Of a stretch of DNA of 64,000 nucleotides, positions 7,297 through 53,104 are shown piece by piece. The stretch is taken from the NCBI GenBank assembly GCA_035479015.1, contig DATIJC010000020.1, positions 4,365 to 68,364 on the forward strand. The letters run 5' to 3'. The position numbers and the translations under genes are program-made. Position 1 is the stretch's first letter. Each line of letters opens with the position of its first letter. Source of the DNA: Patescibacteria group bacterium (lineage in GTDB: Bacteria; Patescibacteriota; Microgenomatia; UBA1400; UBA12028). The notes beneath the pieces were generated by a model, which was not told the origin of the DNA, searched no databases, and saw only the letters and a program-made list of their open reading frames with translations.

Positions 7297-7300
7297 CGGA

Positions 7301-7331
7301 AAAAAACAGGGGGTTGCCCCCCTGTTTTCAA
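7301..7331. terminator. bidirectional intrinsic terminator (12-bp stem AAAAACAGGGGG/CCCCCTGTTTTT, loop TTGC) between convergent genes
   Basis: Perfect hairpin with an A-run on one side and a T-run on the other. An identical 27-nt core occurs at 8106-8132. Confidence 0.7.
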
Positions 7332-8102: not shown

Positions 8103-8135
8103 AAAAAAAACAGGGGGTTGCCCCCCTGTTTAAGT
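8103..8135 (-). terminator. intrinsic terminator downstream of paralog 2, the same hairpin as 7301-7331 followed by T8 on the minus strand
   Basis: Seen in sequence. Confidence 0.7.
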
Positions 8136-8882: not shown

Positions 8883-8906
8883 TAATAAAACAGGGGGTTG
8901 CCCTCT
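8883..8906. repeat. degenerate third copy of the CAGGGGGTTGCCC terminator hairpin
   Basis: ACAGGGGGTTGCCCTCTGA has one stem mismatch. It is probably a remnant of a third duplication unit. Confidence 0.3.
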
Positions 8907-8957
8907 GACAAAATTTAGATTTGACCCGAAGGGGTAGAATTTGCCATACTACACACA

Positions 8958-11271: not shown

Positions 11272-11367
11272 ATGTCATTCCTGCGAAGGCAGGAATCCAT
11301 GCAACAAAGAAAATACAAAAATGAGTTATTTATTGACTGGATCCCTGTCTACACAGGGATGACAGAC
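11272..11367. repeat. two-hairpin TGTCAT...ATGACA element, copy 2 (attcctgc-GAAG-gcaggaat at 11277-11296; 37-nt spacer; tccctgt-CTAC-acaggga at 11341-11358)
   Basis: Left hairpin is 25/26 identical to copy 1. The spacer is about 70 percent identical. The right hairpin stem differs from copy 1 by fully compensatory changes. The CTA of the loop is the stop codon of the upstream phosphoribosyltransferase gene (read as TAG on the minus strand). Confidence 0.65.
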
Positions 11368-11927
11368 TTATACCCCAACTTGGCTAGGTTCTCTACAATT
11401 TGAATTTTTGTATCTCCCTTTTTCCCCCAAATATCGGACAAAAGAGTGGTAGTCTCCCTGGTTTCCCAGGGCCAGATTATCCATGCCTTGGATGTGTGGG
11501 AGTAAAAGTCAGGAATGACTTTGGTCCAAGGTTTAATGACTAGGGTCGCCGTCTGAACCTCACTGGCTCCATGAAAGCCCAGATAAGATCTGGCCATGGC
11601 TAGGGTTTCTCCGCTATCGGCAATATCATCAATGATGAGCACTTTCTCTCCGCGGATTGAGATTGGCAGGGACTGGGTGATGACAGGAGTACGGTTGGTC
11701 GTAGCGATCCCAGAGTAAAATTCGATTTGAATCGAACTTAGTTCTTTCATGCCAAGCAGGTCTAGTATGGGTCTGGCTATCGTCGTACCGCCCTTGGCTA
11801 GTGCTATCACACGGTCAAAACTCTCCTTCTTGTCGATTATTTTTACTGCAAGTGTCTCTACACCTTGGCCAAAATCTTCCCAAGAGAATACTTCGTAAGT
11901 TTGATCGTGGATGAGGCTTCTGATCAT
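11349..11927 (-). CDS. purine phosphoribosyltransferase (Gpt/Hpt-like)
   Basis: PRPP loop VLIIDDIADSGETL. The C-terminal block WIIWPWE resembles Gpt WIEQPWD. The last 3 codons are supplied by repeat copy 2. Confidence 0.7.
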   Translation of the reverse strand: MIRSLIHDQTYEVFSWEDFGQGVETLAVKIIDKKESFDRVIALAKGGTTIARPILDLLGMKELSSIQIEFYSGIATTNRTPVITQSLPISIRGEKVLIIDDIADSGETLAMARSYLGFHGASEVQTATLVIKPWTKVIPDFYSHTSKAWIIWPWETRETTTLLSDIWGKKGDTKIQIVENLAKLGYKSVIPV

Positions 11928-21430: not shown

Positions 21431-22785
21431 TCTGTCGCTTGTTCATACGCGTAGGCGGCCTGGATCATGCGCTCTTCTTGCCACATGGGGGCAACAATGT
21501 TCAAACCAAGATACAAATTCGTTTTCTGATCGTGATACATTGGCACGTTTATTCCAGGTAAACCAGAAATAGAACTCGGTTCTACCAACATATCCGCCAA
21601 TTCTCCAAACATCGGGTTATCTCCGAGAGCGCCAATTTTTTGGGCAAACCCAGGCGATGTTGGTGAGATCAATAAATCGTATTTTTCAAACAGCTCGTTG
21701 TAGTTTTGAATGTACATTGAGCGAACTTGTTGCGCCTTCACATAGTACTTATCTGAATATCCTTTTGAAAGTGTGAAGGTTCCCAGCATGATGCGTCGTC
21801 TGGCTTCTTCGCCAAAGAACGAACGGTCATTGCCATAACGCACACCGTCATAGCGGGCTAAATTACTGCTCACTTCGCTGCGCTGTACCACTGTGTACAC
21901 AGCAATCGCTAGATCCGGTTTCATTGCCTTCGCAGTTTCTACTGTTGCGCCCAAGTTTTCAAATACTTTGCCGGCTTGCTGTAGCGCATTGGCAACTACT
22001 GTACCCTTAATTTTCTCATGTTCACTATAGAGAAGTCCGATACGCAACCCTTTCACCCCTTTTTTTATCTCCTTTGTAAAATCAGGAACGGGCAGCTTGG
22101 AAGTGGTCCCATCATATTTATCACTCCCAGCGATAATATTTAAAAGAATAGCCGTGTCATCTACTGTTTTTCCCATTGGCCCTGGGCTATCAAGTGACGA
22201 GCCCATCGCTACAACACCTGCACGGCTAACGCGTCCATACGTTGGCTTCAATCCGACGATCCCGCACCAACTAGCTGGTTGGCGTATAGATCCAGCCGTT
22301 TCTGAGCCAATGGCGGCGATACATAAATCTGCGGCTACCGCTGCAGCGCTCCCGCCAGAAGAGCCCCCTGGCAAATACTCAAGATTTCGGGGGTTTTTAG
22401 TCGGACCAAAGTCGGATGTCTCTGTACTGCTCCCGTGCGCCCAAGCGTCCATATTGGTTTTACCAATGATTGCTGCACCAGCCTCTTTTAGTTTCTTCGT
22501 GACAGTTGACTCGTATGGTGGTTTAAAATTTTCTAAAACTTTCGAACTCGCAGTCGTTACTAATCCCTTAGTCAAAAAGTTATCTTTAATTGCCAACGGT
22601 GCTCCTAACAAACTATTTGGATTTTGGAGTTTGGATTTTGGATTTTTGTTCCTCGCTAAATATATGTTTAGTTTTGGATTCTCTTGGTCAATCGCTTCGT
22701 TAATTTCAGCCAGTACGTCGTCCGGCGAAATTTCTCTTGCTTTCACTTTATCCAAATACTGTTTTAAGGTTAAATTTCTTAGCAT
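21409..22785 (-). CDS. gatA: Asp/Glu-tRNA amidotransferase subunit A (amidase signature)
   Basis: [13 protein letters not shown]...[13 protein letters not shown]. Confidence 0.95.
22619..22646. repeat. heptanucleotide tandem array (GGATTTT/GGAGTTT) x4 inside the gatA coding sequence; encodes [11 protein letters not shown]
   Basis: Seen directly. The same unit occurs inside ileS at 50692-50721. Confidence 0.7.
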
Positions 22786-41413: not shown

Positions 41414-41752
41414 TTGAAAGGAAAAAATATGTCGGTTTTTAACATCGAATCCCGTGAGCAATTTATCTCAGAAGTATTCCCTGATGGCGTTCCTGCCCTA
41501 CAATCTAGAGATTACTTAAAAGAGAGTGCAATCGACTGGTCTGTTTCACGTAGCAGGTTGTTGAAGACGGCAATCAGAAATGGCGATGAGGAACAAGCAA
41601 AAACAGTTATTCGTGAGTACGCTGCCATCGTTGGTATAGACAGAGCAATACAAGTATTTCTTGAAATTTGGGGAAACGTGGTCACTGAGAACATGGAAGA
41701 TGAACCAATTGTTGAAGACTTAGATACTGGTTTCCCGCCTGCGCGGGAATGA
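41414..41752 (+). CDS. hypothetical protein (112 aa)
   Basis: ORF only. Overlaps the tsaD 3' end convergently. Confidence 0.35.
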   Translation: MKGKNMSVFNIESREQFISEVFPDGVPALQSRDYLKESAIDWSVSRSRLLKTAIRNGDEEQAKTVIREYAAIVGIDRAIQVFLEIWGNVVTENMEDEPIVEDLDTGFPPARE

Positions 41753-42766
41753 AAGATTCGATTGACGATCTAACGTAGAAAAATCTGTAACAAAGTCGTT
41801 GGCCTGGGCCTGAAAATATGCTGCAACGCCAATCATCGCCGCATTATCTGTATACAGTTTTTGTGAGTAGGGAACTAGCAGGGGAATTTTATGGGTACGA
41901 GCAACCGAACGTAGAGCATGGCGCACTTCCCTATTGGCTCCTACTCCCCCGCCCAAAATAATACTTTTCACCTCTTTATCTTTTAGCGCAAATTCAAGTT
42001 TCTCAATCAGGTGTGTGATCGCAGAAGTTTGGAATCCAAGCGCAATATCTGCTATATCTTGTTGTGTTAGTTTGTCGTATTTTTCAATGATGCGGGAAGC
42101 AGCAGTTTTTAAACCTGAAAAACTCATATTAGCGTCTTTGACTTGTCGCATTGGCACTGGAAAAGGAATTTTTCCAACTATTCCTTTGCGGGCCATCAGC
42201 TCTACTAACCTGCCAGCTGGATATCCTAAGCCCAACATGCGACCGACTTTATCAAAGGCTTCGCCCATCGCATCGTCTTGTGTCTGCCCGACGATTTCAT
42301 ACTCCCCAATTGCTTTGGCATACACAAACTCGGTATGACCTCCCGATACCAATACGGCCAATGCTGGAAATTGATCAGCCCATGGCTGACCCGCCTTGGG
42401 CGGGTTTGCAAGAAACGAAAGCAAATGTCCTTCCATATGGTTAACTGCAATCAACGGCTTGTTGTATTTAGTCGCAAGCTCTTTTGCATATGCGATACCA
42501 ATCTCTAATGCTATCGCGAGTCCAGGACCGACCGTCACGGCGATTGCGTCAAGATCGCTAAGATTTACTTTTGCTTTTTTCAATGCTTGCTCTACAACCG
42601 TCGGCAAATTTTGTTCATGCGACAAGCGGGCTAGTCTTGGCACAACACCACCATAAATCTGTAAATCAGAAACCTCGCTAAAACGTATATTTGAACGAAT
42701 AGCTAAGTTTTCGATTACTGCGGCTGCAGTATCATCAAATGAGGTGTCGACAGATAAAATAATCAT
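41720..42766 (-). CDS. tsaD: tRNA N6-adenosine threonylcarbamoyltransferase
   Basis: HMEGHLL ... LVSGGHTEF. Carries an extra NPPKAGQPWAD insert encoded by the 30-nt repeat. Confidence 0.95.
   Translation of the reverse strand: MIILSVDTSFDDTAAAVIENLAIRSNIRFSEVSDLQIYGGVVPRLARLSHEQNLPTVVEQALKKAKVNLSDLDAIAVTVGPGLAIALEIGIAYAKELATKYNKPLIAVNHMEGHLLSFLANPPKAGQPWADQFPALAVLVSGGHTEFVYAKAIGEYEIVGQTQDDAMGEAFDKVGRMLGLGYPAGRLVELMARKGIVGKIPFPVPMRQVKDANMSFSGLKTAASRIIEKYDKLTQQDIADIALGFQTSAITHLIEKLEFALKDKEVKSIILGGGVGANREVRHALRSVARTHKIPLLVPYSQKLYTDNAAMIGVAAYFQAQANDFVTDFSTLDRQSNLSFPRRRETSI
42377..42407. repeat. 30-nt GC-rich palindromic repeat, copy 1, inside tsaD (encodes KAGQPWAD)
   Basis: 28/30 identical to 42779-42809. 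Contains CCCGCC-N3-GGCGGG. Confidence 0.7.
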
Positions 42767-42774
42767 GTTTGTAG

Positions 42775-43851
42775 TTAGTCAGCCCAAGGCTGACCCGCCA
42801 TGGGCGGGTAATTAATTGTAATTTTACGTGAGAACTCCCCAGTGTCTTCTAGGGAAATCCAAATAATCTTTGCTCCTCTACAGAGTTTTTCCAATTCTAT
42901 GGCAAATCGGTCTGCCCACTCTATGGCCAGCACGCAGTTGTTTTCAATATATTTTTTGATACCAATCAGCTCCAGTTCCTTTGCTTCGCTCATCCTCCAT
43001 GTATCGATATGCACGAACAAACTTGGCCGTGACTCGCTCTCAAATCTATACTCACTTGCCATCGTGTAGGTAGGACTAACAACTGGATCCCCTATGGATA
43101 GACCTGCAGCTAAGCCCTTCACAAAGTGCGTCTTCCCAGCCCCCATCTCACCCGTGAGCGCAAAAACGATTGGGGTATATGTATAAAAGGATCGGTACTG
43201 CGTTGCCAAACTTTGCGCCGCAGCAACCGTCTCCTGTACTGAATCCGTTTCAATAATTTGTTTTTTGGCAAACTGGATTTGACCCATTCGCTGTACTTTT
43301 ATGTCATCCAAAGTTGTATCAATTACTGTAGACGGTTCATTGTGCGGCAATTCTCCTGCGTCCAAAACGAGATCAATGAGATCCTTTTGTGATCGTGAAA
43401 TTGCCGTGAAAATATCGCTAATAGTGTACGGGCGCTTTTGATTGGAGGCATTAGCCCCGGTAGCAGTTATTCCGTGTCCAAATTTAGAAATAATCTCTAA
43501 AATTAGTGGGTACTTAGGGATACGGATCCCCAGCGTACCACCAGTAATTTTGTGTGAAACTACGGTCACCGGACCTGGTAAAAACGTCTGGTAGACATTG
43601 AGTGCAGTATCATTGAGCTCCACATACTTTTGGGCCATCCGGACATCGGATACAGCCACAGAAATTGGTTTATTATTGCGCTTCCCTTTATAGTCCAAGA
43701 GTCTTTGCATCGCGGCTGGATTTTCACAATCCGCCCCTATGCCATAGGTAGTTTCGGTGGGGTACACTACAAGACCGCCAGCTTGTAATACAGCTACGAT
43801 TTTCTTAATCACTTCTTCTTTTGAGATTTTTCCCAGGTCCAGTATTTCCAT
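42775..43851 (-). CDS. tsaC: fused L-threonylcarbamoyladenylate synthase (TsaC/YrdC domain) and TsaE (YjeE P-loop) protein
   Basis: N-terminal half VVYPTETTYGIGAD is a YrdC domain. C-terminal half LTGEMGAGKTHFVKG...SPTYTM...HIDTWR is TsaE. The C-terminus ...MAGQPWAD comes from the repeat. Confidence 0.8.
   Translation of the reverse strand: MEILDLGKISKEEVIKKIVAVLQAGGLVVYPTETTYGIGADCENPAAMQRLLDYKGKRNNKPISVAVSDVRMAQKYVELNDTALNVYQTFLPGPVTVVSHKITGGTLGIRIPKYPLILEIISKFGHGITATGANASNQKRPYTISDIFTAISRSQKDLIDLVLDAGELPHNEPSTVIDTTLDDIKVQRMGQIQFAKKQIIETDSVQETVAAAQSLATQYRSFYTYTPIVFALTGEMGAGKTHFVKGLAAGLSIGDPVVSPTYTMASEYRFESESRPSLFVHIDTWRMSEAKELELIGIKKYIENNCVLAIEWADRFAIELEKLCRGAKIIWISLEDTGEFSRKITINYPPMAGQPWAD
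42779..42809. repeat. 30-nt GC-rich palindromic repeat, copy 2, forming the last 8 codons and stop region of tsaC/tsaE
   Basis: Seen directly. Confidence 0.7.
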
Positions 43852-49889: not shown

Positions 49890-52741
49890 ACCTTCTCTAC
49901 TTTGGGAGTGCCTCGAAGGAGCGTTCCCACATGAGCCCGGCGGCGAATCTCTTCCGTATACTCATCCGGCCACTCCGGTAGCCAAGCATTTACATGGTCT
50001 CCCACAGCTATCGATACATCAGCCTTGCGCATATCTTGGATTTGACGGACACACTCGCGCATTTTCCCTTCCGCTATCAATTGATCTGTCAGCGTAGTAT
50101 CTAGATCCACTTCTAGTAAACTTGCAGATTTTTGCAGCCAATCTATTTTTTTGACGTTCACTTCAACAGAAATAAGTTCCTGTAATTTCACATCAATAGC
50201 TGGGAACTCACTGACGACGTGAAGAATGGACAAGGGTTGGCGCACTTTGAGTGACTTGAGTTTACGGATAGACAGAGCCTTTTCCACAATTTGGGCGGTC
50301 AGTGCCATATCTGCTTCTAATTTCTCATCACGTAGTGCCAACAGATCAGAGACCTCTGGCCAGTCAGCCAAGTGCAATGACTCTCCACTCCCAGTGATAC
50401 CTTGATAAATCGTCTCACTAATAAACGGGATAAATGGTGCAAACAATTTGCATAGTAGTACTAGCGCACGCCTATATATCTCGCGGGCATCGCTACTTTC
50501 TTTCAAACGCTCACGCGATAACCGGACATACCAGGTGGAGAGAAGTGTAGTAAATTCCATGAGTGTTCTACTGGCGTTAGTGAGGTCATACCCATCCATA
50601 TAGATAGTCACCTCTTGGGTCAAGTTGGCGAGTTTTGACAGCAGCCAGCGATCCATTACATGTAGAGTTGATAGTTGATAGTTGACCGTTTGGATTTTAG
50701 ATTTTAGATTTTGGATTTTGGAGTCCTGTAAGTACATTGCGTAGAATCCATACATATTCCACAATGTGTTCACTACACGATTTTGGATTTCATGCACTCC
50801 TTTTTCGGAAAAATTCAAATTTTCACCCTTCATGAGAGGGCTACTCATCATGTAGAGGCGCAGTGAGTCTACTCCATACTTATCGATGAGTAAGTTTGGG
50901 TCGGGATAATTGTGCTTGCTCTTACTCATCTTTTGGCCGTCCTCAGCGAGGATTGTCCCGGTGGTCAAACAGTTTTCAAACGCTTGCGAGCCAAATATTC
51001 CCACAGATAAGACGTGCATACAGTAAAACCACGCACGTGTCTGAGCGATGTACTCGGTGATAAATTGCGCAGGATAGGAAGAATCAAATTGCGGTTTATT
51101 TTCAAAGGGGTAATGCATTTGGGCAAACGGCATGCTCCCGGATTCCACCCAACAGTCAAATACTTCAAAAACGCGTTTTCCTTTGATCGTCTTCTGGTCA
51201 TCCACCCAAACTTCTATTTCGTCCAAAAATTCCCGGTGTAGATCTGTCAGTTTTTCCACCTGTTTTGGATCTACCGCCCAGTGTTTCAATTCTTCGATGC
51301 TTCCTACAACCCGGCGCAAATTTCCGCTTTGCCAGATGGGCATCGGTGTTCCCCAGTATCTACTGCGTGAAATGTTCCAATCAGGTGCAGTCTCTAGTCC
51401 CTTGCCGAAGCGTCCGTACTTTAAATGCTCCGGGAACCAATTGATGTATTCGTTAGCTTTTATCATTTCAGGCCGCAACTTGGCAACGTCAATAAACCAC
51501 GCGGGTAGGGCATTAAAGTACAGTGGTGTTCCACAGCGGTAACAAAATGGATATGAGTGCGTGAAACGACTCGTGTGAAAAACAAGATCTCGTTGAGTTA
51601 AGTCCTCTACTACCCACTTCTCTGCTTTTTTATAGAAGACTCCCGCAAGTGGTTCCACAAATTCTAAAAATTTCCCCTGATCATCCAAGGTTGGTACACA
51701 AGGTAATTTTCTCTCCTGTGCAAGTTTATAGTCATCCTCACCAAAAATTGCAGCAGTATGAACGATACCGGATCCTTCCTCTAAGCTCACAAAGTCGGCA
51801 GTCATGACATAGTGTGCTTTTTTCCCATCAAGAGGCATGTAGGTGTATAGCGGTTCGTACTCCAATCCTTCCAACTCTTTCCCTTTCGCAGTTTTAAGTA
51901 CGGTTGGCTCCTTGATGCCAAGCAAGTGTGCCATCGCGCTTAAACGGTCTTTAGCCACCCAAAAACTCATGTCCTGGAATTCGAACAAAACATATTTTGC
52001 TTCAGGAAGTACTGCCAGAGCTACATTACCAGGAAGTGTCCAAGGAGTAGTTGTCCAAGCTACAAAATAGGTATTTTTTTCACCAACTACTTTAAACTTT
52101 ACAAAAAGTGAATAATCTTCAGTATCTTGATAGCTATTGTCCATAGCTATCTCAAAATTTGAGAGCGGTGTGGAGCAGCGCGGACAGTATAAAATTACTT
52201 TTCTACCTTGATATATCAAACCTTTTTTGTAGAGCTCGCTAAAACCCCACCAGACACTTTCCATGAAATTCTTATCCATGGTTTTATACGCTCTATCAAA
52301 ATCAACCCAACGTCCCAGGCGGCGGATAGTTTTCTTCCATTCTTTGTCATAAACCATGATAGATGCAGCACAGGCTTGGTTAAATTTATCGATTCCAAGT
52401 TCTTCGATTCCTTTTTTTCCACCTTTCAGACCCAGCTGCTTCTCAATCGCATTTTCGATCGGCACGCCGTGACAGTCCCATCCCCAAACACGTTCGACGT
52501 GCTTACCTCGCATCGTCTGGTAGCGTGGAATGACGTCTTTACTCGTAGAGCTGAGAAGATGGCCGTAATGAGGTAAACCGTTGGCAAAGGGTGGCCCGTC
52601 GTAAAAAACGTAGGTATCGTTTTTAGGACGGTTGTCGACCGATTTTTTAAATGCGTCCGTATCATCCCAGAACTGCAACACTTCTTCTTCAAGTTTGGCA
52701 AAGTTCGGACGACCTTGCGAAAATTTAGATAATTTTTTCAT
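49886..52741 (-). CDS. ileS: isoleucyl-tRNA synthetase (type 2-like)
   Basis: PPFANGLPHYGHLL (HIGH region), GWDCHGVPIE, KMSKSKHN. Confidence 0.95.
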   Translation of the reverse strand: MKKLSKFSQGRPNFAKLEEEVLQFWDDTDAFKKSVDNRPKNDTYVFYDGPPFANGLPHYGHLLSSTSKDVIPRYQTMRGKHVERVWGWDCHGVPIENAIEKQLGLKGGKKGIEELGIDKFNQACAASIMVYDKEWKKTIRRLGRWVDFDRAYKTMDKNFMESVWWGFSELYKKGLIYQGRKVILYCPRCSTPLSNFEIAMDNSYQDTEDYSLFVKFKVVGEKNTYFVAWTTTPWTLPGNVALAVLPEAKYVLFEFQDMSFWVAKDRLSAMAHLLGIKEPTVLKTAKGKELEGLEYEPLYTYMPLDGKKAHYVMTADFVSLEEGSGIVHTAAIFGEDDYKLAQERKLPCVPTLDDQGKFLEFVEPLAGVFYKKAEKWVVEDLTQRDLVFHTSRFTHSYPFCYRCGTPLYFNALPAWFIDVAKLRPEMIKANEYINWFPEHLKYGRFGKGLETAPDWNISRSRYWGTPMPIWQSGNLRRVVGSIEELKHWAVDPKQVEKLTDLHREFLDEIEVWVDDQKTIKGKRVFEVFDCWVESGSMPFAQMHYPFENKPQFDSSYPAQFITEYIAQTRAWFYCMHVLSVGIFGSQAFENCLTTGTILAEDGQKMSKSKHNYPDPNLLIDKYGVDSLRLYMMSSPLMKGENLNFSEKGVHEIQNRVVNTLWNMYGFYAMYLQDSKIQNLKSKIQTVNYQLSTLHVMDRWLLSKLANLTQEVTIYMDGYDLTNASRTLMEFTTLLSTWYVRLSRERLKESSDAREIYRRALVLLCKLFAPFIPFISETIYQGITGSGESLHLADWPEVSDLLALRDEKLEADMALTAQIVEKALSIRKLKSLKVRQPLSILHVVSEFPAIDVKLQELISVEVNVKKIDWLQKSASLLEVDLDTTLTDQLIAEGKMRECVRQIQDMRKADVSIAVGDHVNAWLPEWPDEYTEEIRRRAHVGTLLRGTPKVEKV
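50665..50721. repeat. two adjacent heptamer arrays (AGTTGAT)x3 and (GATTTTR)x4 inside the ileS coding sequence; encode SKIQNLKSKIQTVNYQLSTL
   Basis: Seen directly. Confidence 0.7.
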
Positions 52742-52744
52742 AAT

Positions 52745-52769
52745 TTGTCCCCGCGTAGGCGGGGATCCA
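52745..52769. repeat. left-type hairpin (TTGTC-ccccgc-GTAG-gcgggg-ATCCA) between GIY-YIG stop and ileS start
   Basis: Flanks TTGTC...ATCCA and loop GTAG match the left hairpins of the doublet elements. Confidence 0.55.
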
Positions 52770-52780
52770 CGTATTGATAG

Positions 52781-53071
52781 TTAGAATAAACTTAAATCTA
52801 TCCACTTAGGATTCATTTCCCAGATTCTTCTCAATTTCCATGCTCTATTCCATTTTTTCATTTGTTTTTCTTTAATCCTTGCTTCTCTTAAACTCCCGGT
52901 TTGTTCAAACCATACTAAAATATGAGTTTCATACTTTTTAGTAAAATTAGAGTTGTTATGCTTATGCTGATATATTCTTCTGTTCAAATCCTTTGTACTA
53001 CCAATATAGAGCGTTCCACATTTTTTATTTGCGAGCATGTAAACATATCCATATTCTTTTTCATCAACCAT
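52781..53071 (-). CDS. small GIY-YIG nuclease (UPF0213-like, 97 aa, start at MVDEKEYGYVYML)
   Basis: GYVYMLANKKCGTLYIGSTKDLNRRIYQH is a canonical GIY-YIG motif. The upstream 14 codons of the track ORF run through a hairpin and a terminator, so Met15 is preferred. Confidence 0.75.
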   Translation of the reverse strand: MVDEKEYGYVYMLANKKCGTLYIGSTKDLNRRIYQHKHNNSNFTKKYETHILVWFEQTGSLREARIKEKQMKKWNRAWKLRRIWEMNPKWIDLSLF

Positions 53072-53072
53072 A

Positions 53073-53104
53073 CTGGACCCCCGCCTTCGCGGGGGTGGAC
53101 ATAA
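53073..53104. repeat. right-type hairpin (CTGGA-cccccgc-CTTC-gcggggg-TGGACAT) 2 nt upstream of the GIY-YIG start
   Basis: Flanks CTGGA...TGGACA and the CTWC loop match the right hairpins of the doublet elements. Confidence 0.55.

Follow-up and report, generated by a model that had tools for sequence, protein, structure and literature searches.

The window analysed here, a 64,000-nt stretch of contig DATIJC010000020.1 from a Patescibacteria group bacterium (assembly GCA_035479015.1), carries on its minus strand two adjacent, co-directional genes that each contain one copy of a 30-nt GC-rich element. One gene, tsaD (41720..42766), codes for a 348-aa protein that matches Pfam PF00814 (E = 2.9e-81) and is identical to an NCBI protein named TsaD. 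The other (42775..43851) codes for a 358-aa fusion of TsaC (Sua5/YrdC) and TsaE, with PF01300 at residues 21-190 (2.9e-39) and PF02367 at residues 203-342 (1.1e-27). Both element copies lie antisense to these genes: E1, within tsaD, occupies 42375..42404 of the plus strand, and E2, at the end of tsaC-tsaE, occupies 42779..42808. They are 404 nt apart, with 374 nt between them, and share orientation and reading frame. Below, L and P numbers label other loci and TatD proteins, respectively.

The 31-mer TCAGCCCAWGGCTGACCCGCCWTGGGCGGGT had two exact plus-strand matches in the window, at 42375-42405 and 42779-42809. Allowing up to three mismatches revealed no third copy in the window and gave 0 matches across 100 dinucleotide shuffles. 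The copies are identical at 29/31 positions, or at 28/30 over the 30-nt core (42375-42404 versus 42779-42808). The repeat reported in the original prediction is thus real and its second copy lies where it was placed, while the first begins 2 nt earlier than was given, at 42375. Each copy is indeed a tiny palindromic unit, although not the single palindrome that had been envisaged: it consists of two abutting 6-bp hairpins with 3-nt loops, TCAGCC-NNN-GGCTGA and then CCCGCC-NNN-GGCGGG, making 30 nt exactly. E1 and E2 both match this pattern exactly and adopt the two-hairpin fold, E1 as TCAGCC-CAT-GGCTGA plus CCCGCC-TTG-GGCGGG and E2 as TCAGCC-CAA-GGCTGA plus CCCGCC-ATG-GGCGGG. Both nucleotide differences are therefore confined to the loops (CAT/TTG in E1, CAA/ATG in E2). 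The peculiar arrangement of the mismatches noticed earlier is also borne out, since the loop segments are reverse-complementary crosswise: GCCCATGGC of E1 is the reverse complement of GCCATGGGC of E2, and GCCCAAGGC of E2 that of GCCTTGGGC of E1. In the operon mRNA, E2 and E1 may pair over a long range through two 9-bp helices in register.

On either strand, both copies have ((((((...))))))((((((...)))))) as their minimum-energy DNA fold. As DNA, each copy folds at -12.2 kcal/mol (z = -4.3 to -4.5, matched by 0/200 shuffles); the corresponding RNA, read in the mRNA sense, folds at about -19.7 kcal/mol. By direct count, the G+C content of the 30-nt core is approximately 70-73%, compared to 41-47% in the window. 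Both copies are present in three assembly records (NCBI GCA_964572785.1, Logan SRR9179561 and Logan SRR9179562), and since the locus is identical in all three it is not an assembly accident.

Read on the minus strand, E1 specifies N-PPKAGQPWAD-Q (TsaD residues 122-131) and E2 specifies Y-PPMAGQPWAD-stop, the final 10 codons of tsaC-tsaE; between E2 and the tsaD ATG lie the stop codon and 8 nt. The insertion is in frame, as had been predicted, but the unit comprises 10 codons (30 nt, PPxAGQPWAD) and not 8. In the AlphaFold model of TsaD (mean pLDDT 93.7), the E1 peptide is modelled as coil between a helix (110-119) and a strand (135-140), and residues 121-130 form the lowest-confidence internal block (mean pLDDT 72). 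Among the 40 closest TsaD homologs, the segment from HLLSFLA to FPAL varies from approximately 5 to 36 residues. Homolog alignment and structure model both support the loop location first proposed, a lineage-variable coil, and the insert probably sits in a variable, exposed loop beside the metal-binding HxxxH helix. The motifs AGQP.A, PWAD and GQPW occur in the window protein only, among the 120 closest TsaD homologs (1/120).

The closest TsaD homolog outside the species (79% identity) is encoded at locus L114, which is syntenic with the window (ParB, signal peptidase, TsaC-TsaE, TsaD, Dus) and lacks the element at both sites. TsaC-TsaE of L114 has 348 aa, compared to 358 aa in the window, and ends ...ITINY*. 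Deleting 30 nt from the window gene gives ATT AAT TAC TAA, or ...INY*, with the same TAA stop, and E2 is therefore a clean 30-nt insertion within the last sense codon. At the tsaD site, L114 has an unrelated loop of 12-13 residues; deleting 30 nt from the window gene gives ...SFLAN-QFPAL..., at the short end of the length range of the homologs. Without the element the sites would read TTGCAAA^TCAATTT in tsaD and AATTA^CTAACTAC in tsaC-tsaE, and the predicted peptide stretch spanning the insert is ...SFLANPPKAGQPWADQFPALAVLVSGGHTEF... Judged from these alignments, both window copies are recent in-frame insertions, gained after the split from the nearest sampled relative. None of the best 150 representatives at 50% identity aligned to the 10-residue tail of TsaC-TsaE. 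Most of them align to nearly the whole query (about 350-380 aa), so that the TsaC-TsaE fusion itself, which is also present in L114, is ordinary in the clade rather than uncommon.

We also considered a composite in which the two copies would flank a cargo, and tested the 374 nt between them as foreign DNA. This segment has 69.8% nucleotide identity to L114, compared to 72-73% outside it; it is not foreign, and the composite was rejected. Because E1 and E2 share a rare following T and a rare C-A-x first loop, they probably descend from one insertion via local duplication or a hop. The cross-complementary loops would follow if the ancestral loops were CAT/ATG and each copy then reverted once toward the family consensus. 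That both hosts belong to the same pathway looks incidental, since groups of 2-4 copies spanning about 1 kb are also found at other loci whose contexts are unrelated.

Copies beyond the window were sought in one genome per species (GTDB; 596 Gb) with the pattern CAGCCNNNGGCTGACCCGCCNNNGGCGGG, which has 23 specified bases. It matched 110 loci in these species-representative genomes, compared to an estimated chance expectation of about 0.02. A relaxed pattern, CAGCCNNNGGCTGNYCCGCCNNNGGCGGR, which leaves two base pairs free, matched at least 120 loci in JGI metagenomes; together, these scans put the copies outside the window at more than 250. Roughly half of the 110 loci carry labels of the candidate phyla radiation (CPR)/Patescibacteria, and the CPR plus at least nine other phyla are represented in all. 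The other labels include Chloroflexi/Dehalococcoidia, Planctomycetota/Brocadiia, Omnitrophota, Zixibacteria, Elusimicrobiota (a single-cell genome), Verrucomicrobiota/Kiritimatiellia, Acidobacteriota and Deltaproteobacteria. Several TPA_asm metagenome-assembled genomes (MAGs) labelled Gammaproteobacteria/Pseudomonadota (L024, L042, L091, L097 and others) share flanks and gene content with CPR loci; the flanks of L097, for example, match those of the Curtissbacteria loci L040 and L071. These labels look unreliable and are probably wrong, and the MAGs concerned were left out of the evidence for phylum breadth.

In IMG/VR, the exact pattern had no match. The relaxed pattern had 15, of which about 11 are genuine (some 8 of them distinct) and lie on low-GC contigs; the remaining four come from one GC-rich gene and look like chance. 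Rfam reported no family at E<=10 over 41500-43500, and none at gathering thresholds for 13 loci and the whole window. A riboswitch or ribozyme was also considered: a hammerhead core was rejected by inspection (CUGA without a following NGA), and the Rfam negatives agree. Concatenated decapeptides searched against 5.8 billion proteins gave nothing that scored, and searches by sequence, encoded peptide, junction 12-mers and topic found no description of the element in the literature covered. The 30-nt double-hairpin family thus appears to be undescribed so far.

Some genomes and contigs hold denser groups of copies. The MAG CAZHVX01 (L004, L021, L023, L027, L053, L063, L068, L073, L074, L080, L086 and L096) has at least 13 exact copies, each within a repeat of about 100 nt, ...GAAGGATCCCG..CGGGATTCTTT[element]CGCT..CTCAGAATGACA, which suggests nested or composite repeats. 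Tandem arrays occur at L188 (2551-2789; four copies with an exact 70-nt period), L151 (three copies) and L115 (6244-6315; two copies 43 nt apart); L182 has three copies within 200 nt. Low-complexity TTTGGATTTTGGA tracts lie in the window at 22616-22646 and 50675-50719. Similar AAAGTCAAAAGTC and AAATCCAAAATCC tracts flank the element in many genomes and are also seen within variable TsaD and TatD loops of relatives.

The element consists of two 15-nt modules, each of the form Y-C-[A/C]-GCC-NNN-GGC-[T/G]-G-R, and is a near-palindrome made of two sub-palindromes, with the family consensus YCAGCC..GGCTGR followed by YCCGCC..GGCGGR. The modules differ at one pair only (A-T versus C-G) and all four module combinations were found, the swapped forms CC/CC, AA and CA included; one of them, TCCGCC-CAA-GGCGGA plus TCCGCC-TTG-GGCGGA, forms a perfect palindrome of 30 bp centred on GGATCC. 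Loop 1 is usually N-R-A and loop 2 T-Y-N, which are mutually complementary. Among the 114 copies matched with fixed stems the loops vary freely; that pattern cannot itself show stem conservation, and pairing was tested on the two free pairs of the relaxed scan. Among the JGI matches listed, the outer pair of hairpin 2 is T-A in 123 copies, C-G in 3, T-G in 3 and C-A in 1, and the closing pair of hairpin 1 is T-A in 73, C-G in 53 and another combination in 4. Both free pairs covary, each being Watson-Crick in 126/130 of these copies. A doubly compensated stem variant, TCGTCC/GGACGA, was also found. The second hairpin of the window copies, CCCGCC..GGCGGG, is rare in the same set (3/130).

Flank information is limited to positions -2, -1, +1 and +2 and reads T-Y^R-A, a weak, symmetric preference of 0.74 and 1.03 bits at -2 and +2. 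Insertion into the loops of pre-existing hairpins was considered and rejected, as pairing between the flanks (0.56) was not higher than in shuffles (0.70).

Paralogous tRNA genes in the same locus, one bearing the element and one intact, differ by exactly 30 nt and show no target duplication. At L166, GTAGCT[30 nt]CAATGGTAGAGC... can be compared to the intact copy GTAGCTCAATGGTAGAGC...; 55 nt on the right are identical and the junction is GTAGCT^CAATGG. In tRNA-Asn, L042, L049 and L091 have CAATT[30 nt]GGCTGTT, and at L065 the same site holds the element inverted, the D-loop containing another copy. A duplicate of tRNA-Pro at L013 holds a D-loop copy and a decayed T-loop copy. The tRNA hosts (L013, L015, L042, L049, L065, L091, L116 and L166) are duplicated or partial Asn, Pro and Met genes; the element occupies either the D-loop or the T-loop, or else position 26/27. 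Each of these eight loci adjoins an ORF for a GIY-YIG nuclease and an intact copy of the same tRNA. An intron reading was tried for these copies and rejected: every disrupted tRNA examined has an intact paralog nearby, so that removal from the RNA need not be postulated. Rfam finds a group I intron near L049 (83 bits).

Copies were scored as intragenic when an ORF extended at least 40 codons on each side. By this measure, 76/258 copies (29%; JGI matches listed included) are intragenic, with frames intact through the element. They read SAxGGPAxGW (25 copies), PPxA[G/D]QPxA[D/E/G], which is the window frame (19), QPxA[D/G]PPxA (11), SxRL[T/I]RLxR (9), PAxGWSAxGG (8) and RxRR[I/V]SLxL (4). Where the closing pair is T-A, two of the six frames contain TGA. 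The copies that use these two, reading SAxGGPAxGW or PAxGWSAxGG, belong to the C-G form, which has no stop there (CCAGCC..GGCTGG). In sequence terms, such sorting of variants by reading frame is what selection on random insertions would produce. TatD is the only host with a database annotation. Other hosts are ORFs resembling, by their predicted products, GspE/PilB-type ATPase, PBP1A-like protein, cysteine desulfurase, a Def-Fmt fusion and aminoacyl-tRNA synthetase.

In five genomes, the element occupies one and the same TatD codon, directly after the conserved SFTGVITF. Most of the 120 closest TatD homologs lack an insert there (TF-(T/A)xxYD-EV), and 17/120 carry one. The inserts are fresh (PPKAGQPRAD, PPKADQPMAD) or decayed (PPRLGETG, LPSRSSAQVG, LARRNSAKEG), and the proteins that bear them are scattered over the tree in separate branches. 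Each bearer compared is far closer to a non-bearer than to any other bearer: P0142 is 91% identical to the non-bearer P0190 and 60% to the nearest other bearer; the corresponding values are 84% (P0127) and 66% for P0122, 78% (P0144) and 63% for P0129, and 77% (P0145) and 63% for P0133. In DNA, P0142 and P0190 are about 90% identical throughout the gene and the left element junction is clean. On the right flank of P0142, identity drops to 42-67% over approximately 55 nt, where numerous synonymous differences and a deletion of 6 nt occur. This divergent tract resembles the product of co-conversion; apparently the element came in together with part of a foreign tatD allele. In most bearers the residue directly following the element is Thr, in keeping with this reading. 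As far as the alignments reveal, the TatD pattern is the behaviour of a homing element and goes beyond transposition alone. The tatD gene of P0142 (L250, columns about 455-475) has a second GC-rich in-frame insert of 21 nt, GTCTGCCCGACGGCGAGGCGG (...SSARRRGG...), with no counterpart in P0190, that may be a decayed single hairpin module.

To characterize the gene neighbourhood, 1654 ORFs within 1.5 kb of copies at 230 loci (JGI matches listed included) were clustered. The sole recurrent neighbour family is a stand-alone GIY-YIG nuclease ORF of about 80 residues (Pfam PF01541, E about 1e-16). It accompanies the element in 19/230 loci, with a median of 19 nt between the two. The element precedes the GIY-YIG ATG by 2-25 nt in about 12 loci, and at L121 the nuclease gene is bracketed by two copies. 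A GIY-YIG ORF was found within 50 nt of 5.5% of copies, compared to 1.0% of random positions in the same loci. No transposase-like family, HUH included, was recurrent among the 1654 ORFs.

The window has its own GIY-YIG ORF at 52781-53071 on the minus strand (PF01541, 1.6e-14), about 10 kb from E1 and E2. It is bracketed by two CCCCGC-N4-GCGGGG hairpins (52747-53098), a class distinct from the element; one stands 3 nt before the GIY-YIG ATG and the other between its stop codon and the ATG of the next gene (52741). The arrangement suggests a small cassette that was inserted downstream of a terminator-like hairpin. Two further hairpins belong to this second class. One, TTCCCGC-CTGC-GCGGGAA at 41732-41749, lies in the overlap of tsaD with the convergent ORF 41414-41752 and is read through by both (...SFPRRRETSI* and ...GFPPARE*); the last TsaD residues have pLDDT below 50. 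The other is a GC hairpin, GGATCCCCGC-CTCC-GCGGGGAC, at the tsaC/E-tsaD junction of L114, where the window has E2.

We consider it likely that E1 and E2 are copies of a non-coding, selfish, mobile 30-bp double-hairpin DNA element. At the sequence level we observed gains of exactly 30 nt without target duplication, differences in presence and absence, dispersal of the family and local clustering. We likewise observed that stem pairs covary, that old copies decay, that one TatD codon is occupied recurrently, with a flank transferred alongside, and that variants are sorted by frame. We propose that the element entered the tsaC/E-tsaD operon of this lineage after divergence from the nearest sampled relative, one copy going into the length-variable surface loop of TsaD and the other inside the last sense codon of TsaC-TsaE. 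The in-frame element would be transcribed and translated as a Pro/Gly/Ala-rich decapeptide, and simple translation would be tolerated because the unit is exactly 30 nt long and stop-free in the frame used. The original idea of an element that invaded two adjacent genes therefore holds, while a gene-conversion tract private to them does not.

Movement would take place at the DNA level through a trans-acting structure- or sequence-specific nuclease, which we infer to recognise the two-fold symmetric double hairpin or the empty site and to drive both ectopic insertion and homing. The element could thus spread by insertion at new sites plus homing-like recombination between orthologous genes. By its adjacency to the element, the GIY-YIG protein is the best candidate for the mobilising enzyme; that the stand-alone nuclease is involved is possible but doubtful. 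Two hairpins are a natural substrate of a Y1 transposase dimer, and an HUH/Y1 single-strand transposase dimer, which would bind both hairpins and leave no duplication, is the main alternative mobiliser; the sequence around copies (8-15 kb per copy) lends it no support. We know of no mobile element smaller than this 30-bp double hairpin. As a tentative and rather unlikely extension, it may be the smallest mobile element, moved by GIY-YIG nucleases, combining insertion at new sites with homing after DNA uptake, crossing phyla and feeding 10-residue loops into proteins. A benefit of the element to its host is a candidate idea only, unproven.

Several observations weigh against a mobile element. 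The covariation comprises two pairs with two states each, which a few propagating subfamilies could mimic. Most genomes have 1-2 exact copies, which is unusual for a transposing repeat, and the window copies depart from the T-Y^R-A flanks (GA^TT and AG^TA). There is no empty/filled polymorphism within the species, as 3/3 assembly records carry both copies, and the tsaD site, filled or empty, had zero matches in the JGI metagenome scan. Some 90% of copies lack a GIY-YIG gene within 600 nt, and the adjacency that exists could reflect shared permissive spots only, such as tRNA clusters. Stems conserved over huge phylogenetic distances could also mean selection at the level of the host.

This last point leads to a different explanation, in which the element is a host-selected cis-acting signal (an mRNA stabiliser or processing site, a translational coupler of tsaC/E and tsaD, or a protein-binding site) that was recruited repeatedly, the coding copies being by-products. 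Conserved and covarying stem pairs, a stable RNA fold of about -20 kcal/mol and the weak symmetric flank preference are what such a signal might display. So is its position, with E2 8 nt plus a stop before the tsaD start, where L114 has a different GC hairpin, and with many copies 2-25 nt before GIY-YIG start codons. However, the same 30 nt are read in at least five frames within unrelated housekeeping ORFs and also occur in loops of pseudo-tRNAs and in intergenic DNA; their presence is patchy between orthologs that are 78-91% identical; old copies decay, as with LPSRSSAQVG and PPRLGETG at the TatD site; and Rfam has no matching family. We therefore regard a host signal as improbable. Purely local copying between the tsaD loop and the tsaC/E tail, by gene conversion or slippage and without any mobile family, would account for two copies 404 nt apart in one orientation and frame, for their shared following T and C-A-x first loop and for the cross-complementary loops. 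It does not account for the copies in other genomes, more than 250 of them, that share these 24 stem bases, both sites are empty in L114, and the segment between the copies is not foreign (69.8% versus 72-73% outside). On its own, local copying is very unlikely; as a step within the spread of a mobile element, local duplication of one inserted copy is likely.

A GC-rich hairpin element with precise boundaries inside essential genes and tRNA loops also recalls sequences that are removed or skipped after transcription. The GC-rich byps of Magnusiomyces (yeast mitochondria) and T4 gene 60 are precedents for translational bypass, and a minimal intron or bypass element would allow TsaD to be made without the decapeptide. 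Against this, the length is always a multiple of three, the original stop codon follows E2 in frame and, as described above, each disrupted tRNA examined has an intact copy nearby. Furthermore, the coding copies avoid the two TGA-containing frames, which the stop-free CCAGCC..GGCTGG variant fills, and we give removal or bypass very little credence. An artefact of assembly or sequencing, or contamination, might be suspected since all sources are metagenome assemblies and some copies lie at contig ends. Yet the locus is identical in three assembly records, and the matches derive from numerous projects and assemblers, a single-cell genome being among the sources, and each has unique flanks and an intact reading frame; the likelihood of an artefact is next to nil. 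A mobile element is thus the explanation that we retain.

The closest lookalikes of the 30-nt element are the double-hairpin elements (DHEs) of fungal mitochondria (Allomyces, other chytrids, Schizosaccharomyces octosporus/osmophilus), which are short, GC-rich and composed of two adjacent hairpins (PMC10085805). DHEs are dispersed in intergenic DNA and structural RNA genes, are identical or near-identical across species apart from loop differences, and are suspected of a mobility whose mechanism is unexplained (PMC10085805). Both families thus share a GC-rich two-hairpin unit in an AT-richer genome, differences confined to loops, sites in intergenic DNA and RNA genes, and suspected mobility. 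The likeness is one of structure and description. In contrast to the organellar DHEs, the present element occurs in bacteria of many phyla (MAGs and one single-cell genome), is strictly 30 nt long and is associated with GIY-YIG genes.

Rickettsia palindromic elements (RPEs) are selfish palindromic repeats inserted in frame in housekeeping genes, where they are translated and compatible with the protein fold (PMC10969869). They are about 100-150 bp long, restricted to Rickettsia and present in tens of copies per genome (PMC10969869). The 30-nt element is likewise palindromic, inserted in frame in unrelated housekeeping genes and predicted to yield a translated segment. However, it is smaller, crosses phyla and usually has 1-2 exact copies per genome, and no match was labelled Rickettsia. 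With the repetitive extragenic palindromic (REP) sequences and their BIME and REPIN forms (RAYT), it has in common a GC-rich imperfect palindrome of 20-40 nt, the absence of target duplication and local clustering. REPs are extragenic and high-copy, whereas the 30-nt element is 29% intragenic and is present only twice in the 64 kb of the window. REPs bear a GTAG or CGTC tag at one of their ends (PMC3733652); the 30-nt consensus with its T-Y^R-A flanks carries neither.

Palindrome-associated elements of the IS200/IS605 type also have hairpins at both ends, which here make up the whole element, and no target duplication. Their insertion takes place 3' of a fixed tetra- or pentanucleotide target; around the 30-nt element there is the weak, symmetric T-Y^R-A preference of 0.74 and 1.03 bits. 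Homing elements (inteins, group I introns with GIY-YIG or LAGLIDADG genes, Seg-type GIY-YIG genes) resemble it in the recurrent, sporadic occupancy of the TatD site, in the co-conversion-like flank and in adjacency to GIY-YIG and tRNA genes. Unlike them, it encodes nothing, is unspliced, uses many sites and in most copies lies far from a nuclease gene. [quoted passage not shown] Known MITEs measure about 50 bp or more; the 30-nt element is well below that size and has no target-site duplication. It falls outside the REPs by tag, intragenic sites and copy number, outside the MITEs by the missing duplication, outside the RPEs by size and taxon, and outside the fungal DHEs by host. It is therefore a bacterial, cross-phylum, 30-bp double-hairpin element set apart from these four families.

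Other repeats of the window are listed here for completeness. A 102-nt repeat (78% identity; 419-520 and 11273-11374) contains TGTCATTCCTGCGTAGGCAGGAATCCAG and is probably another small dispersed family; segments of it (419-457 and 11326-11364) recur as inverted arms. Three tandem related genes (a 98-nt stretch at 70% identity, spaced by about 800 nt) have hairpins at 7300-7327, 8104-8131 and 8884-8911. Two of them are followed by an identical terminator-like hairpin, AAAAAAACAGGGGGTTGCCCCCCTGTTT, and the third by a diverged copy (71% identity).

The interest of these observations rests on the family that they reveal, of which the window pair is one small instance. If our interpretation is correct, a 30-bp non-coding sequence enters essential genes in frame across at least 10 bacterial phyla. 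Genome annotation would be affected through extended ORFs, spurious C-terminal tails and disrupted tRNA predictions. The family would give the unexplained double-hairpin elements known from fungal mitochondria a counterpart in bacteria and, with its 30 bp and a candidate nuclease of about 80 residues, would be a tractable system for studying how small palindromes are mobilised. If the GIY-YIG nuclease does move it, the element would spread across phyla among groundwater and sediment bacteria and would keep supplying essential proteins, CPR ones included, with loop insertions of 10 residues. Proteins and RNAs of the CPR are known for unexplained insertions. For some lineage-specific loop insertions in CPR/Patescibacteria proteins, the element would offer a testable origin, its decayed copies being visible in TatD.

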